Of a stretch of 64,000 nt of DNA, positions 1-56,911 are shown piece by piece. The DNA is from Dehalococcoidia bacterium (GTDB lineage Bacteria; Chloroflexota; Dehalococcoidia; UBA2979). The stretch is taken from positions 576,001 through 640,000 of the forward strand of contig OZ219872.1 of assembly GCA_964291495.2 (NCBI GenBank), in the 5' to 3' direction. The position numbers and the translations under genes were made by a program. The notes under the pieces are model-generated. The model saw only the letters and a list, made by a program, of their open reading frames with translations. It was not told the DNA's origin and did no database searches. Position 1 is the first letter of the stretch. Each line of letters starts with the position of its first letter.

Positions 1-1026
1 CGGCGCGAAGGCGTGCAGGTGGTCGCGCACCGCAACCTGCGGCGCTGCCAGGAGGACGACCGCCGCATCCCCGGCTACCGCCACTGGCGCAACAAGGTCT
101 TCTTCGGCCGCGGCGTGCGCGTGACCGCCCCCGAGCCGGTCGTCCCGGACATCGCCTTCGACCAGCGCTACGACTTCGAGTTGGGCGGGCTGCGCTTCGA
201 GCTGCATCACGCGCCGGGCGGCGAGACCATCGACAGCGCCTGCGTACACCTGCCCGATCACGACATCCTGTTCAGCGGCAACATCCTCGGCCCGCTCTTT
301 CCCACCCTCCCGAACCTCTACACGATCCGCGGCGACAAGTACCGCTTCGCCGACGCCTACATCGAGACGGTCGAGCTGCTGCGCGACCTGCAGCCCGAGC
401 TGCTCATCACCGGCCACTTCGACCCGATCAGCGGCCGCGAGCACATCGCGCGCGAGCTGACGCGGCTGCGCGACGCCGTCGCCTACGTACTCGAGGAGAC
501 GCTGAAGGGGATGAATGCGGGCAAGAACCCCTACGAGTTGATGCGCGAGATCCGGCTGCCCGAGGGCCTCGAGGTCGACGAGCGTTACGGGAAGGTCGCC
601 TGGGACGTGCGCGGGATCTTCGAGTCCTACGGCGGCTGGTTCCACTTCGACTCGACCACGGAGCTGCTGGCGGACGCACCCTCCTCGATTAACGCCGAGG
701 TCGCCGCGCTCGCCGGCGTCGCCGCTCTCGCGCGGCGCGCGCGGGAGCTGCTGGACGGCGGCGAGGCGGGCCACGCGATCCGCCTGGCGGAGATGGCGCT
801 GGCGGGAGACTCGCGCCATCGGGACGCCCTCGAGGTCTACCGCGACGCCCACCAGGTGCTGCTCGAAAGCGCTGGCGCGAACATGTGGGACCTGCGCTGG
901 CTGCGTCGACAGGTGCGCGGCGCCGATCGCCTGCTCGCCGCCGAGCCGGACTCCGAGGACTGGGCGCGCACCGAGGGCGAGCCGCGCATCGCCCGCTGGA
1001 TGATGGACCCACCCGAGGCGCCCTGA
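1..1026 (+). CDS. Alkyl/aryl-sulfatase-like metallo-beta-lactamase-fold hydrolase (5' end outside window)
   Basis: Frame is open from base 1. Motifs GGETID, FPTLPNLYTIRG, LITGHFDPI and YGKVAWDVRGIF..YGGWF match the SdsA-type catalytic and dimerisation domains. Confidence 0.8.
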   Translation, partial: RREGVQVVAHRNLRRCQEDDRRIPGYRHWRNKVFFGRGVRVTAPEPVVPDIAFDQRYDFELGGLRFELHHAPGGETIDSACVHLPDHDILFSGNILGPLFPTLPNLYTIRGDKYRFADAYIETVELLRDLQPELLITGHFDPISGREHIARELTRLRDAVAYVLEETLKGMNAGKNPYELMREIRLPEGLEVDERYGKVAWDVRGIFESYGGWFHFDSTTELLADAPSSINAEVAALAGVAALARRARELLDGGEAGHAIRLAEMALAGDSRHRDALEVYRDAHQVLLESAGANMWDLRWLRRQVRGADRLLAAEPDSEDWARTEGEPRIARWMMDPPEAP

Positions 1027-1824
1027 CTCCGTTCCCTTCCGGTCCTGTGGGAGGCTGCGCCCCCCACACCCCCATCCCGGACGAGCACGCTGCGCGGCTC
1101 GGGCCCACCCACCCGCCCTCGGATTTCTTTCCTGTGGGGGCTGCGCCCCCGCACCCCCCGGGGCCCCGAGGTCGCACCCGCCTCCCGAGGGCGGTCCGGT
1201 CCCCTCTCCCCGAGGGAGAGGGCGGAGGGTGAGGGAGGCACCCGCCTCCGGCCCCCTCTCCCCTCGCGGGAGAGGGCGGGGGTGAGGGGGCGCCGCGCGT
1301 CAGCGCGGCCAGCGGGCGCATGGGGGTTGCGAGGGCGCGGCGACAGCCTCGAGGGCGCGCGCTCCGGCTACGCCGGAGTCCCCCTCACCCGCGGGGGTGT
1401 GGGGGGAATCCCCCCACAGAGCACTGGCTCTCCCGCCGGGGGGAGAGGGGATCGGAGGGAGCACCCTCCGAGAGTTCCGAAGGCATTCCGGTCCCCTCTC
1501 CCCGAGGGAGAGGGCGGAGGGTGAGGGAGGCGCCCGCCTCCGGCCCCCTCTCCCCTCGCGGGAGAGGGCGGGGGTGAGGGGGCGCCGCGCGACGGCGCGG
1601 CCGGCGGGCGCACGGAGGTCGCGAGGGCGCGGCGACAGCCTCGAGGGCGCGCGCTCCGGCTATGCCGGAGTCCCCCTCACCCTAACCCTCTCCCGCCGGG
1701 GGAGTGGGGAGCGGAGGGAGCGCCCTCCGAAAGTCCCGGAGGGTGGTCCGGTCCCCTCTCCCCGCGGGAGAGGGCGGAGGGTGAGGGAGACTCCGGCGAG
1801 CGGGCTGCGGTGAGGACCGCAGCG
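1027..1824. repeat. Mosaic tandem array of REP-like palindromes between convergent genes
   Basis: Unit of 260-290 bp repeated at about 1195-1486 and 1487-1746, partial at 1747-1790. Seven CCCTCTCCC-N-GGGAGAGGG-N-GGGTGAGGG elements, plus GGGGCTGCGCCCC-type hairpins near 1050 and 1136. Confidence 0.9.
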
Positions 1825-2925
1825 CTACGCGGGGCCGAGTTGCATTGCCTCGATGGCGTCGTAGGCTTCCTCGATCAGGTCGAGGATGACCTGGCGGACG
1901 GGCTTGATCTCGCGGATGAAGCCGACGCCCTGGCCGGCGGCGACGCCCTGCCAGTCGCGCAGCTCGTGCTCGTCGATCGCCTGGCGCAGCTTGTTGTTGA
2001 GCAGGCCCTGCAGCGGCATCGGCAGGTGCTGCGGCGCGTCCGCCGACTCCCACGACTCGACGTAGCGGTTGCGCACGCCTCGAGAGCGCTTGCCGTCGCC
2101 GGCCGTCGAGACCCAGGCGTCCTGCGCCTTCGCGTCGAGCAGCTTCTGCTTCGCCCACATCTCCGTCGCCGACTCGTGCGTCGCCTGCCACATCGTGCCC
2201 GTCCAGACGCCGACGGCCCCGAGGGTGAGCGCGGCCACGATGTGGCGGCCGGTGGTGACGCCGCCCGCGGCGAGGATCGGCGTGTCGAACTCGCGCGCCA
2301 GCTCGACGACCTCGGGCACGATCGAGAAGGTGCCGATGCGCCCGGTGTGACCGGCCGAGTCCTGGCCCTGCGCGATCAGCAGATCGAGCCCGGCCTCCAG
2401 CTCGCGCCGGGCCTGGCGGGCGAGGCCGATCAGGCCCCAGACCTTCACACCGGCGTCGTGCATCTCGTCGAGGATGAAGGCGGGGCTTCCGAGGCCGGAG
2501 GCGAAGATCGGGATCCGCTCCTCCATCATGATCTCGAGCTTGGTGCGCGTGTCGCGCAGGCCGCGCAGGCGCACGTCCTCGGGGGGCGGACCCTTCGGGT
2601 CCGGGATGTCGTTGTCGCGCATCAGCTGCTCGACCCAGTCGCGGTGGCCCTGCGGGATCTGGGCCTCCAGCTCCTCCTGGTTGCCGCGCACGTAGGACGA
2701 GGGAATCGTGATGTCGACGCCGTAGGGGCGGTCGCCGACGCGCTCCTTGATCCATTTGATGTCGGCCCGCATCTCCTCGATCGTGTGCGTGCTGGCGCCA
2801 AGGACGCCGATGCCGCCGGCGTTGGAGGCGGCGGCGGTCACGTCGCGCGTGTGCGCGAAGGCGACGATCGGGTATTCGGCGCCGTACTCCTCGCAGAGCC
2901 GGGTGTGCAGTGGGTCGCCGGTCAT
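1825..2925 (-). CDS. Nitronate monooxygenase / FabK-like FMN-dependent oxidoreductase
   Basis: YPIVAFAH..AAASNAGGIGVLG, AQGQDSAGHTG, LAAGGVTTGR, GVWTGT and AGQGVG motifs. ATG at 2925 is preceded by GAAAGGA. Confidence 0.85.
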   Translation of the reverse strand: MTGDPLHTRLCEEYGAEYPIVAFAHTRDVTAAASNAGGIGVLGASTHTIEEMRADIKWIKERVGDRPYGVDITIPSSYVRGNQEELEAQIPQGHRDWVEQLMRDNDIPDPKGPPPEDVRLRGLRDTRTKLEIMMEERIPIFASGLGSPAFILDEMHDAGVKVWGLIGLARQARRELEAGLDLLIAQGQDSAGHTGRIGTFSIVPEVVELAREFDTPILAAGGVTTGRHIVAALTLGAVGVWTGTMWQATHESATEMWAKQKLLDAKAQDAWVSTAGDGKRSRGVRNRYVESWESADAPQHLPMPLQGLLNNKLRQAIDEHELRDWQGVAAGQGVGFIREIKPVRQVILDLIEEAYDAIEAMQLGPA

Positions 2926-2947
2926 CGCGGTGGTCCTTTCGGTTAGG

Positions 2948-2984
2948 CCCTCACCCTCACCCTCTCCCGCGCAGGGAGAGGGGA
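2948..2984. repeat. REP-like element (hairpin + G-tract family)
   Basis: CCCTCACCCTCACCCTCTCCC-GCGCA-GGGAGAGGGG. Confidence 0.85.
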
Positions 2985-2995
2985 CAGTCACGCCG

Positions 2996-4660
2996 CTAGC
3001 GCGGGGCGAGCCAGCGGAACTCCTGAGGCTTGCGCTTCGCCTGCGGGTCGATCGGGACGTGGATCAGCGAGGGGCCGTCGAGCGTCAGCGCCTCCTGCAG
3101 CGCCGCCTCGATTTGCTCCGGCGTCTCGCAGTGGTAGCCCACGCCGCCGAGGCCTTCCATCACCTTGTCGTAGCGCGTGCCGGGGTTGAGGCCGCCGGGC
3201 GGCAGGTTCTCGCGCTCGAAGTGCTCGAGCGGCGTGCCGCCGATGCCGTTGTTGTTGACCACCACCCAGGTGATCGGCAGCCCGTGGCGCACCGCGACCT
3301 CGCACTCCATGCCGGCGAAGCCGAACGCCGAGTCGCCCTGCACGCAGATCACGCGCTGGTCCGGGTGCTCCACCTGCGCGGCGACCGCGAAGCCGTGACC
3401 GAGGCCCATCGAGCCGAAGCTGCCCGCGTCGAGCCGCTGGCGCGCCGCGAAGTTGTCGAGCAGCGTACGCCCGATCGCCATCGTGCCCTCGCCCTCGGTC
3501 ACGTAGACCGCGTCGCGCGGGGCGAGCCGGCGGACGATGTCGAGCGTGGTGTAGTAGCCGAACGGCTCGCCGTCGCGACCCGCGCCGATCATGCCCTCGA
3601 CCATCTCCTGGTTCTTGCGCGCCTCGGCGCGCACGGTCTGCAGCCACTCCGAGTCCTGCGGGAACTGCCACGGCTCCTCGTCGAGGGCGTCGAGCAGCTG
3701 GCCCAGCGTCACCTTCGCGTCGCCGACAAGGCCGACCTCGGTCGGCACGTTGACGCCGATCTCCTCGGGGTTGGAGTCGAGCTGGACGACGCGCACATCG
3801 TCGCGCCAGCGCGGCGGCTGGCCGAAGTGCAGCATCCAGTTGAGGCGTGCGGCCCCGAGGAAGACGAGGTCCGTGTTCTTGAGCACGAAGCTGCGCGCCG
3901 CCGCGATCGACTGCGGGTGGTCGTCGGGCAGGATCCCGCGCGCCATCGGCATCGCGAGGTAGGGGATGCCTGTCTGCTCGACGAAGCGGCGCATCTCCGC
4001 CTCGGCGCGGCCGAAGGAGATGCCCTTGCCGATCACGATCAGCGGCTGCTCGGCGGTCTTGAGGGCAGCGAGGGCGTCGGTGACGGCGGAGTCGTCGGCG
4101 CGCAGGCGCGGCGGGTCGGGCACGCGCGGGGCCCACTCGACGTCGTCCTCGTCGACCTCGTCGAAGATGATGTTGCCGGGCAGGTCGAGGTAGCTGGGGC
4201 CGGGCGTGCCGTTGATCGCCTTGCGCACGGCCTCGGCGACGTAGAGGGGGAGGCGCTCGGTGCTCTCGGCGCGGCGCGCGTACTTGGCGTAGGGGGCCAT
4301 CGCGGCGACCTGCTCGGCCTCCTGGAAGTCGCCCATGTCGGCGCGGGTCGCGTCGGAGGCGCCGCCGAGCATGAGCAGCGGCCAGCGGTTGGACCAGGCG
4401 TTGGCGAAGGCGCCGACGGCGTTGAGCGCGCCCGGTCCGGAGACGACGAGGCTGACGCCGATGCGGCCGTTGAGGTAGCCGGTGGCCTGTCCGGCGTAGG
4501 TGGCGGGCATCTCGTGGCGCATGCCGTAGTAGCGGATGCCCTCGCGCTGGGCGGCGGCGGCGATGCCGCTGACGGGGATGCCGACCACGCCGTAGATGGT
4601 CTCGACGCCCTGCGTCTTGAGTGCGCGCGCGATGATGGTCTCGCCGTTGATCTTCGCCAT
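2996..4660 (-). CDS. TPP-dependent 2-hydroxyacyl-CoA lyase / oxalyl-CoA decarboxylase family enzyme
   Basis: YGVVGIPV, GMRHE, LDAGSFGSMG, GDSAFGFAGME...VVNNNGIG TPP motif, C-terminal RKPQEFRWL. Start at MAKINGE. Confidence 0.88.
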   Translation of the reverse strand: MAKINGETIIARALKTQGVETIYGVVGIPVSGIAAAAQREGIRYYGMRHEMPATYAGQATGYLNGRIGVSLVVSGPGALNAVGAFANAWSNRWPLLMLGGASDATRADMGDFQEAEQVAAMAPYAKYARRAESTERLPLYVAEAVRKAINGTPGPSYLDLPGNIIFDEVDEDDVEWAPRVPDPPRLRADDSAVTDALAALKTAEQPLIVIGKGISFGRAEAEMRRFVEQTGIPYLAMPMARGILPDDHPQSIAAARSFVLKNTDLVFLGAARLNWMLHFGQPPRWRDDVRVVQLDSNPEEIGVNVPTEVGLVGDAKVTLGQLLDALDEEPWQFPQDSEWLQTVRAEARKNQEMVEGMIGAGRDGEPFGYYTTLDIVRRLAPRDAVYVTEGEGTMAIGRTLLDNFAARQRLDAGSFGSMGLGHGFAVAAQVEHPDQRVICVQGDSAFGFAGMECEVAVRHGLPITWVVVNNNGIGGTPLEHFERENLPPGGLNPGTRYDKVMEGLGGVGYHCETPEQIEAALQEALTLDGPSLIHVPIDPQAKRKPQEFRWLAPR

Positions 4661-20169: not shown

Positions 20170-20428
20170 GGGGGCTGCGCCCTCCGGGGCCCGTCTCCCC
20201 GCAGAGACCGTTGTGAGACTCCCACAGGCCCGATCCGGCGCCCTCTCCCTGGGGAGAGGGCGGGGGTGAGGGGAAGACTCCGGCGCCCTCCGAGAGCCCC
20301 GATGGCGCAACGCGATTCCGGAGGGCGGAACTCCCTCACCCTAACCCTCTCCCTCGGCGAGAGGGGACCGGAAGGGAGGCGCACCCCCGCCGCTGCCCCG
20401 GCTGGATTCCGGCTTTCGCCGGAATGAC
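20170..20428. repeat. Mosaic intergenic repeat (inverted REP pair plus dRS3-like hairpin)
   Basis: REPs at 20241-20273 and 20333-20366. 20205-20372 recurs in reverse at 56711-56910. CTGGATTCCGGC-TTTC-GCCGGAATGAC at 20402-20428. Confidence 0.88.
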
Positions 20429-56639: not shown

Positions 56640-56710
56640 CCCGGGCGGCGCGCCTGCTGCCCGACGGAACCTTCGCGTAACCCTCTCCTCAGGGCAGCGA
56701 ACGCATCGCC

Positions 56711-56910
56711 TCCGGTCCCCTCTCCCCGAGGGAGAGCCAGTGCTCTGTGGGGGGAGTCCCCCCACACCCCCCGTGAGGGAGGGTCCGTCCTCCGGGATTG
56801 CGTTGCGCCATCAGGGCTTTCGGAGGCGCGCGGGAGTCCTCCCCCTCACCCCCGCCCTCTCCCCAGGGAGAGGGGGCTGGATCGGGCCTGTGGGAGTTTC
56901 GCAAAGGTCT
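56711..56910 (-). repeat. Second copy of the 20.2-20.4 kb mosaic element, carrying a 36-nt cassette
   Basis: Reverse complement aligns with 20205-20372 (ACTCCCACAGGCCCGATCC, GATGGCGCAACGC), except CCTAACC is replaced by the cassette at 56737-56772. Confidence 0.88.
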
Positions 56911-56911
56911 C

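Follow-up and report, generated by a model that had tools for sequence, protein, structure and literature searches.

The locus considered here raises the question of what kind of sequence occupies one fixed point of an interspersed repeat in a Dehalococcoidia genome, and whether it moves by itself. The stretch analyzed, called the window, comprises 64,000 nt (G000:C6:576001-640000) of a genome (G000) of 3.08 Mb and 71% G+C, assembled in 8 contigs and 93.7% complete. On its plus strand at 1389-1427, a short hairpin cassette, CCGCGGGGGTGTGGGGGGAATCCCCCCACAGAGCACTGG, stands between CCCTCAC and CTCTCCC; on the minus strand at 56772-56737, GGGGGGTGTGGGGGGACTCCCCCCACAGAGCACTGG stands between the same flanks. 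In the sister of each copy this place is taken by the heptamer CCTAACC (1681-1687 and 20340-20346, respectively). The initial annotation of the window had read these sequences correctly, including the lack of a target duplication at the cassette copies and the difference between the backbones: at a distance of 7 nt from the cassette, the hairpin loop of the repeat itself reads gccgg in one backbone and tcgg in the other, and each matches the loop of empty copies of the same backbone. Two explanations had been offered, a tiny element that targets another repeat site-specifically and a directed conversion between variants of a repetitive extragenic palindromic (REP) sequence. Our analysis favors, with a probability of roughly 0.55, passive inheritance of the cassette combined with occasional copying or erasure by recombination or template switching between repeat copies.

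The host repeat, which had been labeled a REP, is by its sequence an already published motif, the G/C-rich intrastrand triplex motif TM_ECO (Holder et al., 2015, Nucleic Acids Res 43:10126, PMC4666352). The published pattern reads CCCTCNCCC N3-6 GGGNGAGGG N3 GGGNGAGGG, with TTA (type A) or CCG (type B) as the second loop. Triplex formation was demonstrated in vitro by circular dichroism (CD) and nuclear magnetic resonance (NMR), the motif has been associated with locally rearranged DNA, and the proteobacterial catalogue comprises 3,610 copies in 262 genomes, none of which has more than 143 (PMC4666352). The repeat of G000 fits this pattern exactly, including type A (TTA) and B-like loops: a pyrimidine stem CCCTCTCCC is followed by loop 1 of 3-6 nt, a purine stem GGGAGAGGG, loop 2 of 3 nt, and a second purine stem GGGTGAGGG. 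These 9-nt stems do not differ by a single letter from the E. coli ones. Both the published motif and the repeat studied here are multi-copy and lie within hypervariable intergenic DNA. Whereas the catalogue is proteobacterial, G000 belongs to the Chloroflexota and carries 125 strict copies in its 3.08 Mb (40.6 per Mb; 0 in the mononucleotide-shuffled genome); the relaxed count (<=2 substitutions) is 289, and 14 relaxed matches were found in the window. In a sample of the phylum the strict pattern was detected in 92 of 301 genomes, representing 58 of 172 genera, with 0 matches in the reversed control; the tally takes in one unpublished genome (G264). One other genome has 144 copies. TM_ECO is therefore a common and abundant motif outside the Proteobacteria. 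For the "G4 motif" that the cassette had been noted to disrupt, the TM_ECO intrastrand-triplex motif is the better description.

Cassette copy 1 (1389..1427, plus strand; nhmmer E = 2.6e-10) is 39 nt long and consists of a 5′ G-run, a 9-bp G6/C6 hairpin with an AAT loop, and a 3′ tail ending in CACTGG. Copy 2 (56737..56772, minus strand; nhmmer E = 7.7e-10) measures 36 nt, lacks the 5′ CCGC and has an ACT loop. The cassette is, on this evidence, a putatively self-folding G6/C6 hairpin module of 36-40 nt found in a small minority of TM_ECO copies. Copy 1 belongs to a filled TM_ECO unit of backbone A (1382..1449, minus strand, delimited by the motif definition of PMC4666352), in which the pyrimidine stem and loop 1 are followed by GGGAGAG, the cassette, and an intact third stem GGGTGAGGG. 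The empty sister unit (1674..1708, minus strand), recognized by its sequence pattern, is of type A, with TTA as loop 2. The filled unit of copy 2 (56718..56779, plus strand), recognized in the same way, lies within a MITE (miniature inverted-repeat transposable element). Read as its reverse complement, the heptamer CCTAACC comprises loop 2 (TTA) with two bases of stem to either side; the cassette therefore replaces loop 2 and leaves the first purine stem shortened to GGGAGAG; it displaces the 3-nt loop and the last two G of that stem, and the third stem is intact or slightly shortened. Filled copies are non-canonical TM_ECO variants: the published loop 2 has 3 nt, whereas they carry a hairpin of 32-40 nt there and a first purine stem cut to 7 nt (GGGAGAG, an insert of 28-44 nt, and then the third stem).

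Presence of the filled form in the window was established in two ways. The 18-mer CCCCCCACAGAGCACTGG, the 3′ end of the cassette, occurs in 2 copies against 0.00 expected from 100 shuffles, and a 21-mer of the empty form occurs in 4 copies at <=1 mismatch, again against 0.00 expected from shuffles. An independent read assembly (run X21) yielded a 108-nt contig that covers 1361-1468, that is, the filled form of copy 1 with both flanks, with 0 differences. No empty-allele contig was seen at window positions 700-2200 in the assemblies of 4 of 24 read runs; their unitigs were short and broke throughout the array, so that this result has no bearing on polymorphism.

The two filled sites of the initial annotation are real, but they are not the only ones. 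A cassette-only profile identified ten intact copies in G000, one 3′-truncated copy (C5:1097320), one 5′-degraded copy (C5:1584169), and one half remnant (C5:1126302). The 12 filled copies rank best (E <= 0.005), a few of them re-matching weakly on the opposite strand, and no non-repeat DNA of G000 was matched at E <= 0.005. A cassette lying mostly outside the repeat, an outcome that the initial annotation had named as damaging to its own proposal, is not what was found: no stand-alone or excised cassette, and none outside a TM_ECO unit, was detected in G000. The position is as strictly fixed as had been claimed, with 23 of 23 aligned filled copies from seven genomes sharing both site and orientation. 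A contig end in G002 (L075, G002:C56:1-91), which consists of long C and G runs before a cassette 3′ end and looks like an assembly artefact, was left out of the alignments. It was also correct that the cassette occurs in different backbones, but in G000 at least four (A, B, C, and D) carry it rather than two. Backbone A is filled at window position 1389, three filled copies have backbone C, and one has backbone D; backbone B, a composite of ~178 bp with ~49 copies in the genome, is represented by five filled intact copies and one filled truncated copy. With a strict pattern, the junction between cassette and repeat turned up in seven of the 19 genomes of this uncultured Dehalococcoidia genus (G000, 8; G002, 8; G005, 4; G010, 4; G009, 2; G001, 1; G011, 1), and the control gave 0. 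In a wider genome collection the junction pattern proved too loose, nearly all listed matches being lone chance matches in unrelated taxa.

Most cassette copies are old and have been inherited passively with their carrier, either a MITE or a set of tandem units. The MITE, backbone B, is derived from an insertion sequence (IS) of the IS5 type. Its filled copy in the window (56666..56911, minus strand) contains two inverted TM_ECO units and ends in GAGACCTTTGCGAAA (at 56897-56911 as the reverse complement) and, at 56666-56681, in a degenerate GGAACCTTCGCGTAAC; the second of these units (56843..56876, minus strand) is empty, with CGG as loop 2. A further backbone-B copy (20205..20382, plus strand) has an empty unit at 20333-20365 on the minus strand, which contains the CCTAACC at 20340-20346. 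Backbone-B copies end in terminal inverted repeats of the GAGACCTTTGCG type, and the same terminal inverted repeats bound a full IS5-like element (DUF772 + DDE_Tnp_1) in the congener G009. No homolog of the G009 transposase was found in G000.

The filled MITEs were compared with their ortholog sites in related genomes. The one at window position 56.7k is absent from G001, G002, G009, and G010 and is present, internally deleted, in G005; its flanks have diverged too far for a target-site duplication (TSD) to be read. The MITE at C6:650517 is absent in G001 and G009, and that at C5:168584 in G001, G005, and G010. At C5:1650482 the element is absent in G001 and G005, and the G002 ortholog is also filled and has the same AAT loop. 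At C6:756.8k both G000 and G005 are filled, in an element ending in the same MITE terminus, and there is nothing at this site in G002 and G010. Whole filled MITEs are thus present or absent at ortholog sites, so that most differences in copies between species reflect movement or loss of the carrier and not of the cassette. In the G005 ortholog of the window MITE (L036, G005:C19; window 56650-56911), ~140 bp has been lost between direct GGGAGAGGG arms; the cassette region is gone and a single hairpin is left. Partial deletions between palindromically arranged copies (the "palindrome effect") have been published for TM_ECO in E. coli, and the deletion in G005 is of the same kind.

Three loci (the tandem pair of the window, an array at C6:746.6k, and a chimera in G010) show, on comparison of their sequences, a filled or empty state that changes independently of the backbone. 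In the window, tandem unit 1 (1200..1491, ~292 bp) is filled and tandem unit 2 (1492..1785) is empty, in an intergenic region between an MBL/alkyl-sulfatase-like gene and a nitronate-monooxygenase (NMO) gene. The left arm of unit 1 is 95.1% identical to that of unit 2. With both arms taken together, unit 1 is 93.4% identical to its empty tandem neighbor, 93% identical to the empty ortholog in G009, and 77-80% identical to the filled backbone-A copies of G010. Unit 2, which adjoins the NMO gene, is the positional counterpart of the empty copies in G001, G002, and G010; the NMO-adjacent unit is empty in all four genomes, the single unit of G009 is empty too, and so is every other copy at the locus. 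By parsimony, empty would be the ancestral state at this locus. The orthologous intergenic region (window 1027-1824; L023, L026-L031, L033) ranges in 8 congeners from 12 bp without repeats (G004) to ~4 kb (G009), between flanking genes that are 88-96% identical; in a qualitative comparison, made without a matched control set, it resembles the loci with TM_ECO that are unusually rearranged between close relatives. The C6:746.6k array reads empty-empty-filled in G000, filled in G011, and filled-empty in G005. Its filled units share the variant ending AAGACACGG, and two backbone sub-lineages, marked by CGACCGGC or CGACTG, each occur in both states across the three genomes. In the G010 chimera (L076, G010:C2:1896811-1899833, at ~1473), a backbone-A left flank and a backbone-C right flank are joined at the cassette. 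All G010 cassettes share CCTC...ACAACACAYTGG whatever their backbone, and ACAGAGCACTGG is limited to G000, where backbones A, B, and C all have it. In G010, three or four filled copies lie in a cluster near a contig end (C2:1898-1904 kb), and a near-identical copy is present on C1.

In the same intergenic region as cassette copy 1, a stand-alone repeat, "family 2", lies at 1043..1163 on the minus strand and has two G-run/C-run hairpins around GGGCGGGTGGGTGGG that share the core of the cassette. Roughly 40 copies of ~130 nt each are present in G000. The match to the family-2 hairpins comprises the 5′ G-run of the cassette, the TGT/ACA-closed G6/C6 stem, and the following ACAGA. The weaker matches of the cassette profile (E ~0.03-10) are almost all to family-2/3 or similar G-run hairpins, in one register (profile ~3-5 to 30-34).

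These observations can be combined as follows. A hairpin module related to another interspersed repeat would have been captured in loop 2 of TM_ECO, replacing two stem bases as well. With no machinery of its own, the cassette persists and spreads passively, both within backbone B, the IS5-derived MITE, and in intergenic units duplicated in tandem. Now and then, short-tract gene conversion or a template switch during replication would carry it into further TM_ECO copies or remove it from them, and the conserved stems on either side could provide the homology for such transfer. A hairpin insert may be tolerated in loop 2 because it keeps its two ends together, so that the purine stems would stay adjacent. 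Conversion between repeat variants, the second of the two explanations offered initially, fits better than the first, given the state switching in tandem arrays, the chimera, and the genome-specific cassette variants that are found across backbones. The data show the anatomy of the cassette, its fixed position, its age, its hitch-hiking, and the lack of a linked enzyme; the mechanism of transfer itself, and a role of the loops as preferred break or insertion points, are what we infer.

Several points weigh against passive inheritance with occasional transfer. The homology beside the cassette is short, ~9 nt on one side and an interrupted hairpin of ~20 nt on the other, and is poor for RecA-type conversion. 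There are ~280 empty donors and ~12 filled ones, a roughly 25-fold excess, so unbiased conversion should erase the filled form, yet it persists across species. State switching in the window pair and at C6:746.6k was observed in tandem arrays in both cases, and unequal crossing-over could therefore mimic it; no orthologous single repeat outside tandem arrays was found to be filled in one genome and empty in another. The ortholog comparison left out four filled G000 loci (C5:937401, 947391, 1080484, and 1097331). The similarity between cassette and family 2 rests on G/C runs, and each match is non-significant (E = 0.03-10). Finally, the backbone trees are star-like and too poorly resolved to decide monophyly. 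The best tree of backbone B (46 rows) has four state changes, and uniting the filled copies costs 29-30 log-likelihood units; by the approximately unbiased (AU) test a single filled clade is borderline (p = 0.069 with six rows, 0.033 with five rows). In the backbone-A tree (12 rows) the corresponding value is p = 0.28, the test failing to reject one filled clade because unit 1 has a zero-length branch. Descent of all filled copies from one old event, which the initial annotation had considered fatal to its proposal, is thus neither established nor cleanly rejected.

Such a single ancient origin, with one insertion, purely vertical or hitch-hiking descent in larger units, and backbones that diverged or were rearranged around the cassette, seems improbable all the same. 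In favor of it are the age of the insert and its restriction to one sub-group of the genus (7 of 19 genomes), the movement of filled MITE-B copies as complete units, and the AU tests, which do not firmly reject single clades. However, backbones A, B, C, and D share only the ~45-nt repeat, and each is also found in many empty copies with the same architecture. Filled unit 1 is far nearer in sequence to the empty units of its locus than to any filled copy elsewhere, both backbone sub-lineages at C6:746.6k occur in both states, and even the best backbone-B tree needs 4 state changes. We regard as unlikely, to a lesser degree, that the cassette is a non-autonomous site-specific mini-element, inserted without target duplication by an enzyme that is encoded elsewhere, recognizes loop 2 or the triplex, and has perhaps been lost from, or was unassembled in, G000. 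Strict specificity of site and orientation in at least four backbones would suit this explanation, as would the tight boundaries, with the backbone-specific loop 1 kept 7 nt away, and the lack of a TSD, as in IS110- or IS200-type insertion. The filled form has moreover persisted despite a large excess of empty copies and short flanking homology, and independent hairpin inserts occur at the same loop in other genera (see below). IS110-family transposases are known to target REPs (PMC1525189) and are abundant in 11 of the 19 genus genomes (across the genus, 0 to 47 matches per genome). Yet G000, G002, and G005 contain filled copies and have no IS110 match, and the IS110 type that was examined has unrelated ends and other targets. 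No Y1/HUH transposase (PF01797) was found in any of the 19 genomes, in a search whose control matched 6 of 14 reference genomes, and no TnpB-type domain (PF07282) was found in G000. The HUH (RAYT/IS200) gene that the initial annotation proposed to look for was thus not encountered, and nothing supports reading its tiny site-specific element as one with machinery of its own: the cassette has no TSD, no copies outside TM_ECO, and neither Y1, TnpB, nor a matching IS110 end. Cassette copies differ from one another by ~5-15%, as much as their carriers do, which gives no hint of a recent burst; presence or absence of whole MITEs explains most of the differences in copies between species, and G000 contains no stand-alone or excised cassette. 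An origin from RAYT or IS200/IS605 elements was rejected on the results for Y1 (19 genomes) and the TnpB-type domain (G000). The cassette was likewise rejected as a miniature IS110 derivative, the ends of a 1,521-bp type, the sole one defined, being unrelated to it.

The filled form might instead be a functional variant (a terminator, a stabilizer, or a protein-binding site) selected for its predicted fold, a proposal to which we give only a slim chance. In predictions of single-stranded DNA folding, empty units form a weak repeat hairpin (-6 to -9 kcal/mol, z ~0), whereas filled units reach -24 to -29 kcal/mol (z = -2.7 to -4.5). A similar nested architecture is predicted for most of the genus's 22 filled copies. 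In it, the outer flank, rich in C, pairs with the G-rich arm; CTCTCCC pairs with the 5′ G-run of the cassette; and the G6/C6 hairpin forms a branch. These predictions are Watson-Crick only and do not include the triplex. Both the far greater predicted stability and the shared architecture would be expected of a selected variant, and unrelated inserts in another genome (G051, described below) keep their stem by compensatory changes. On the other hand, the stem of the G000-type cassette is composed of invariant G/C runs, so that there is no covariation to support selection. Copies decay, as the truncated, degraded, and internally deleted examples illustrate, and no consistent gene context was seen. 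Rfam 15 contains no family for the cassette or for family 2: at gathering thresholds only a tRNA was found in the window, and searches of six cassette or stand-alone-repeat loci returned one chance-level miRNA match at E <= 0.1.

A search of 301 genomes of the phylum was made for a truncated first purine stem, a gap of 20-50 nt, and an intact third stem. The filled-like pattern was found in 12 of the 301, and besides G000 it was convincing in G051, G271, and G194, the rest being adjacent repeats or MITE ends. The loop-2 insert of G051 (L238-L245) is unrelated to the cassette. It is a GGCGC-stem hairpin present in four copies (e.g., CCTGAAGGGTGAGGCGCTGAAGAGCGCCGAGGTC) and a fifth, variant copy, with compensatory changes between copies in its inner stem. 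G271 has one loop-2 insert with a 7-bp hairpin, and G194 has one copy. The G051 insert corresponds, in shortened form, to the base of a longer hairpin that belongs to a separate stand-alone repeat in G051 (16/17 and 8/8 bases shared in two blocks). That repeat is ~120 nt long, occurs in at least 3 copies, and has no Rfam match; the relation parallels that between cassette and family 2 in G000. The stand-alone repeat of G051 was rejected as the end of a mobile gene, its neighbors being housekeeping genes (MBL-fold, FGGY kinase, and xylose-isomerase-like). In G009 the ortholog of the window unit (L033, G009:C1:813500-817700, ~1757-4090) is split by two ISs: one, IS481-like (HTH + rve), sits in loop 2 with a CCTAACC to either side, and the other, the IS5-like element (DUF772 + DDE_Tnp_1), sits in loop 1. 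TM_ECO loops appear to be recurrent acceptor sites for hairpin inserts and IS elements. The unrelated hairpin inserts in the same loop in other genera (G051, G271, G194) and the two ISs in the G009 loops are new here.

A broader proposal can be put forward only tentatively, and we hold it to be a good deal less likely than the reading preferred above: TM_ECO loops may be acceptors defined by structure, loop 2 repeatedly capturing short self-folding modules from other interspersed repeats of the same genome in unrelated lineages and ISs entering loops 1 and 2. If true, the pattern of inserts would be an in vivo footprint left in bacteria by the formation of triplex (H-DNA), and "hairpin capture" at non-B DNA, a templated process, would be one not described before. 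TM_ECO has been linked to genome instability. In this genus and at least one other (G051), its loops have time and again received hairpin inserts and ISs at exact positions. A concrete and testable prediction follows: in vivo the loops should be exposed and serve as points of breakage or template switching. The published triplex finder limits loops to 1-6 nt (PMC4666352), so that long-loop variants, including the filled ones, would have been missed by short-loop searches of that kind. In repeat-rich genomes, moreover, apparent "targeted mini-elements" can arise from hitch-hiking and recombination without a dedicated enzyme.

The initial annotation had not recognized the arrangement as a described one. 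The host repeat is published as TM_ECO (PMC4666352), but a hairpin placed in its loop 2 was nowhere found described in the literature searched, the supplements of Holder et al., which may show long-loop variants, not being covered. It has been shown that IS elements, among them members of the IS110 family, target REP elements at a fixed position (Tobes and Pareja, 2006, PMC1525189). The likeness lies in the use of repeats as specific insertion targets, seen here for the IS481-like and IS5-like elements in loops 2 and 1 in G009, and in insertion without duplication by IS110-type elements. The cassette differs in being non-coding, only 36-40 nt long, and without IS ends, and it matches no IS ends examined. 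Intergenic repeats that are short, abundant, palindromic, and rich in G and C, and that often stand in inverted pairs, are also characteristic of REP/REPIN-RAYT systems (Bertels and Rainey, 2011; Nunvar et al., 2010), and a GTAG or CGTC tag stands at one end of the REP palindrome (Di Nocera et al., 2013). The repeat character is alike, but the defining RAYT (Y1) gene was not found in any of the 19 genomes of the genus. Modular, clustered, and nested small repeats are known from the pneumococcal BOX, RUP, and SPRITE elements (Croucher et al., 2011, PMC3049150) and from the BIMEs of E. coli (Nunvar, 2010; Ton-Hoang, 2012). In those systems nesting involves whole elements, and no single fixed nucleotide of a defined non-B-DNA motif is reported as its site, whereas the cassette is a miniature of another repeat's hairpin at such a position. 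In ERIC sequences, which are palindromic intergenic repeats, a minority of copies reportedly has an extra block (~70 bp) at the same internal site. If so, ERIC would share with the repeat studied here an extra block at a fixed internal site, and repeat, organisms, and insert size would differ. The TRIP1 repeats of E. coli (PMC10888264) were considered as a relative and rejected as unrelated; the word "triplex" is absent from that paper.

Some further observations concern the G-run hairpins of these genomes. The GGGCGGGTGGGTGGG of family 2 is a textbook four-tract G-quadruplex sequence, and the repeat occurs with different right halves, of which one continues into backbone C. The 1,521-bp IS110 type (L233, L234; copies in G001 and G010) inserts beside G-rich/GCCCCC hairpins; one copy lies within a family-2 hairpin, in its 3′ arm, and another immediately follows a TM_ECO unit. 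Two stand-alone G6/C6 hairpins of G000 (C5:941950 and C5:945099) were rejected as cassettes, as they are part of a long inverted repeat around a surface-protein-like gene (L049, C5:941930-945140). The ends of this inverted repeat are G6/C6 hairpins without the closing C:G pair, and the gene inside it is large, lies on the minus strand, and has a C-terminus that resembles a surface-anchor signal.

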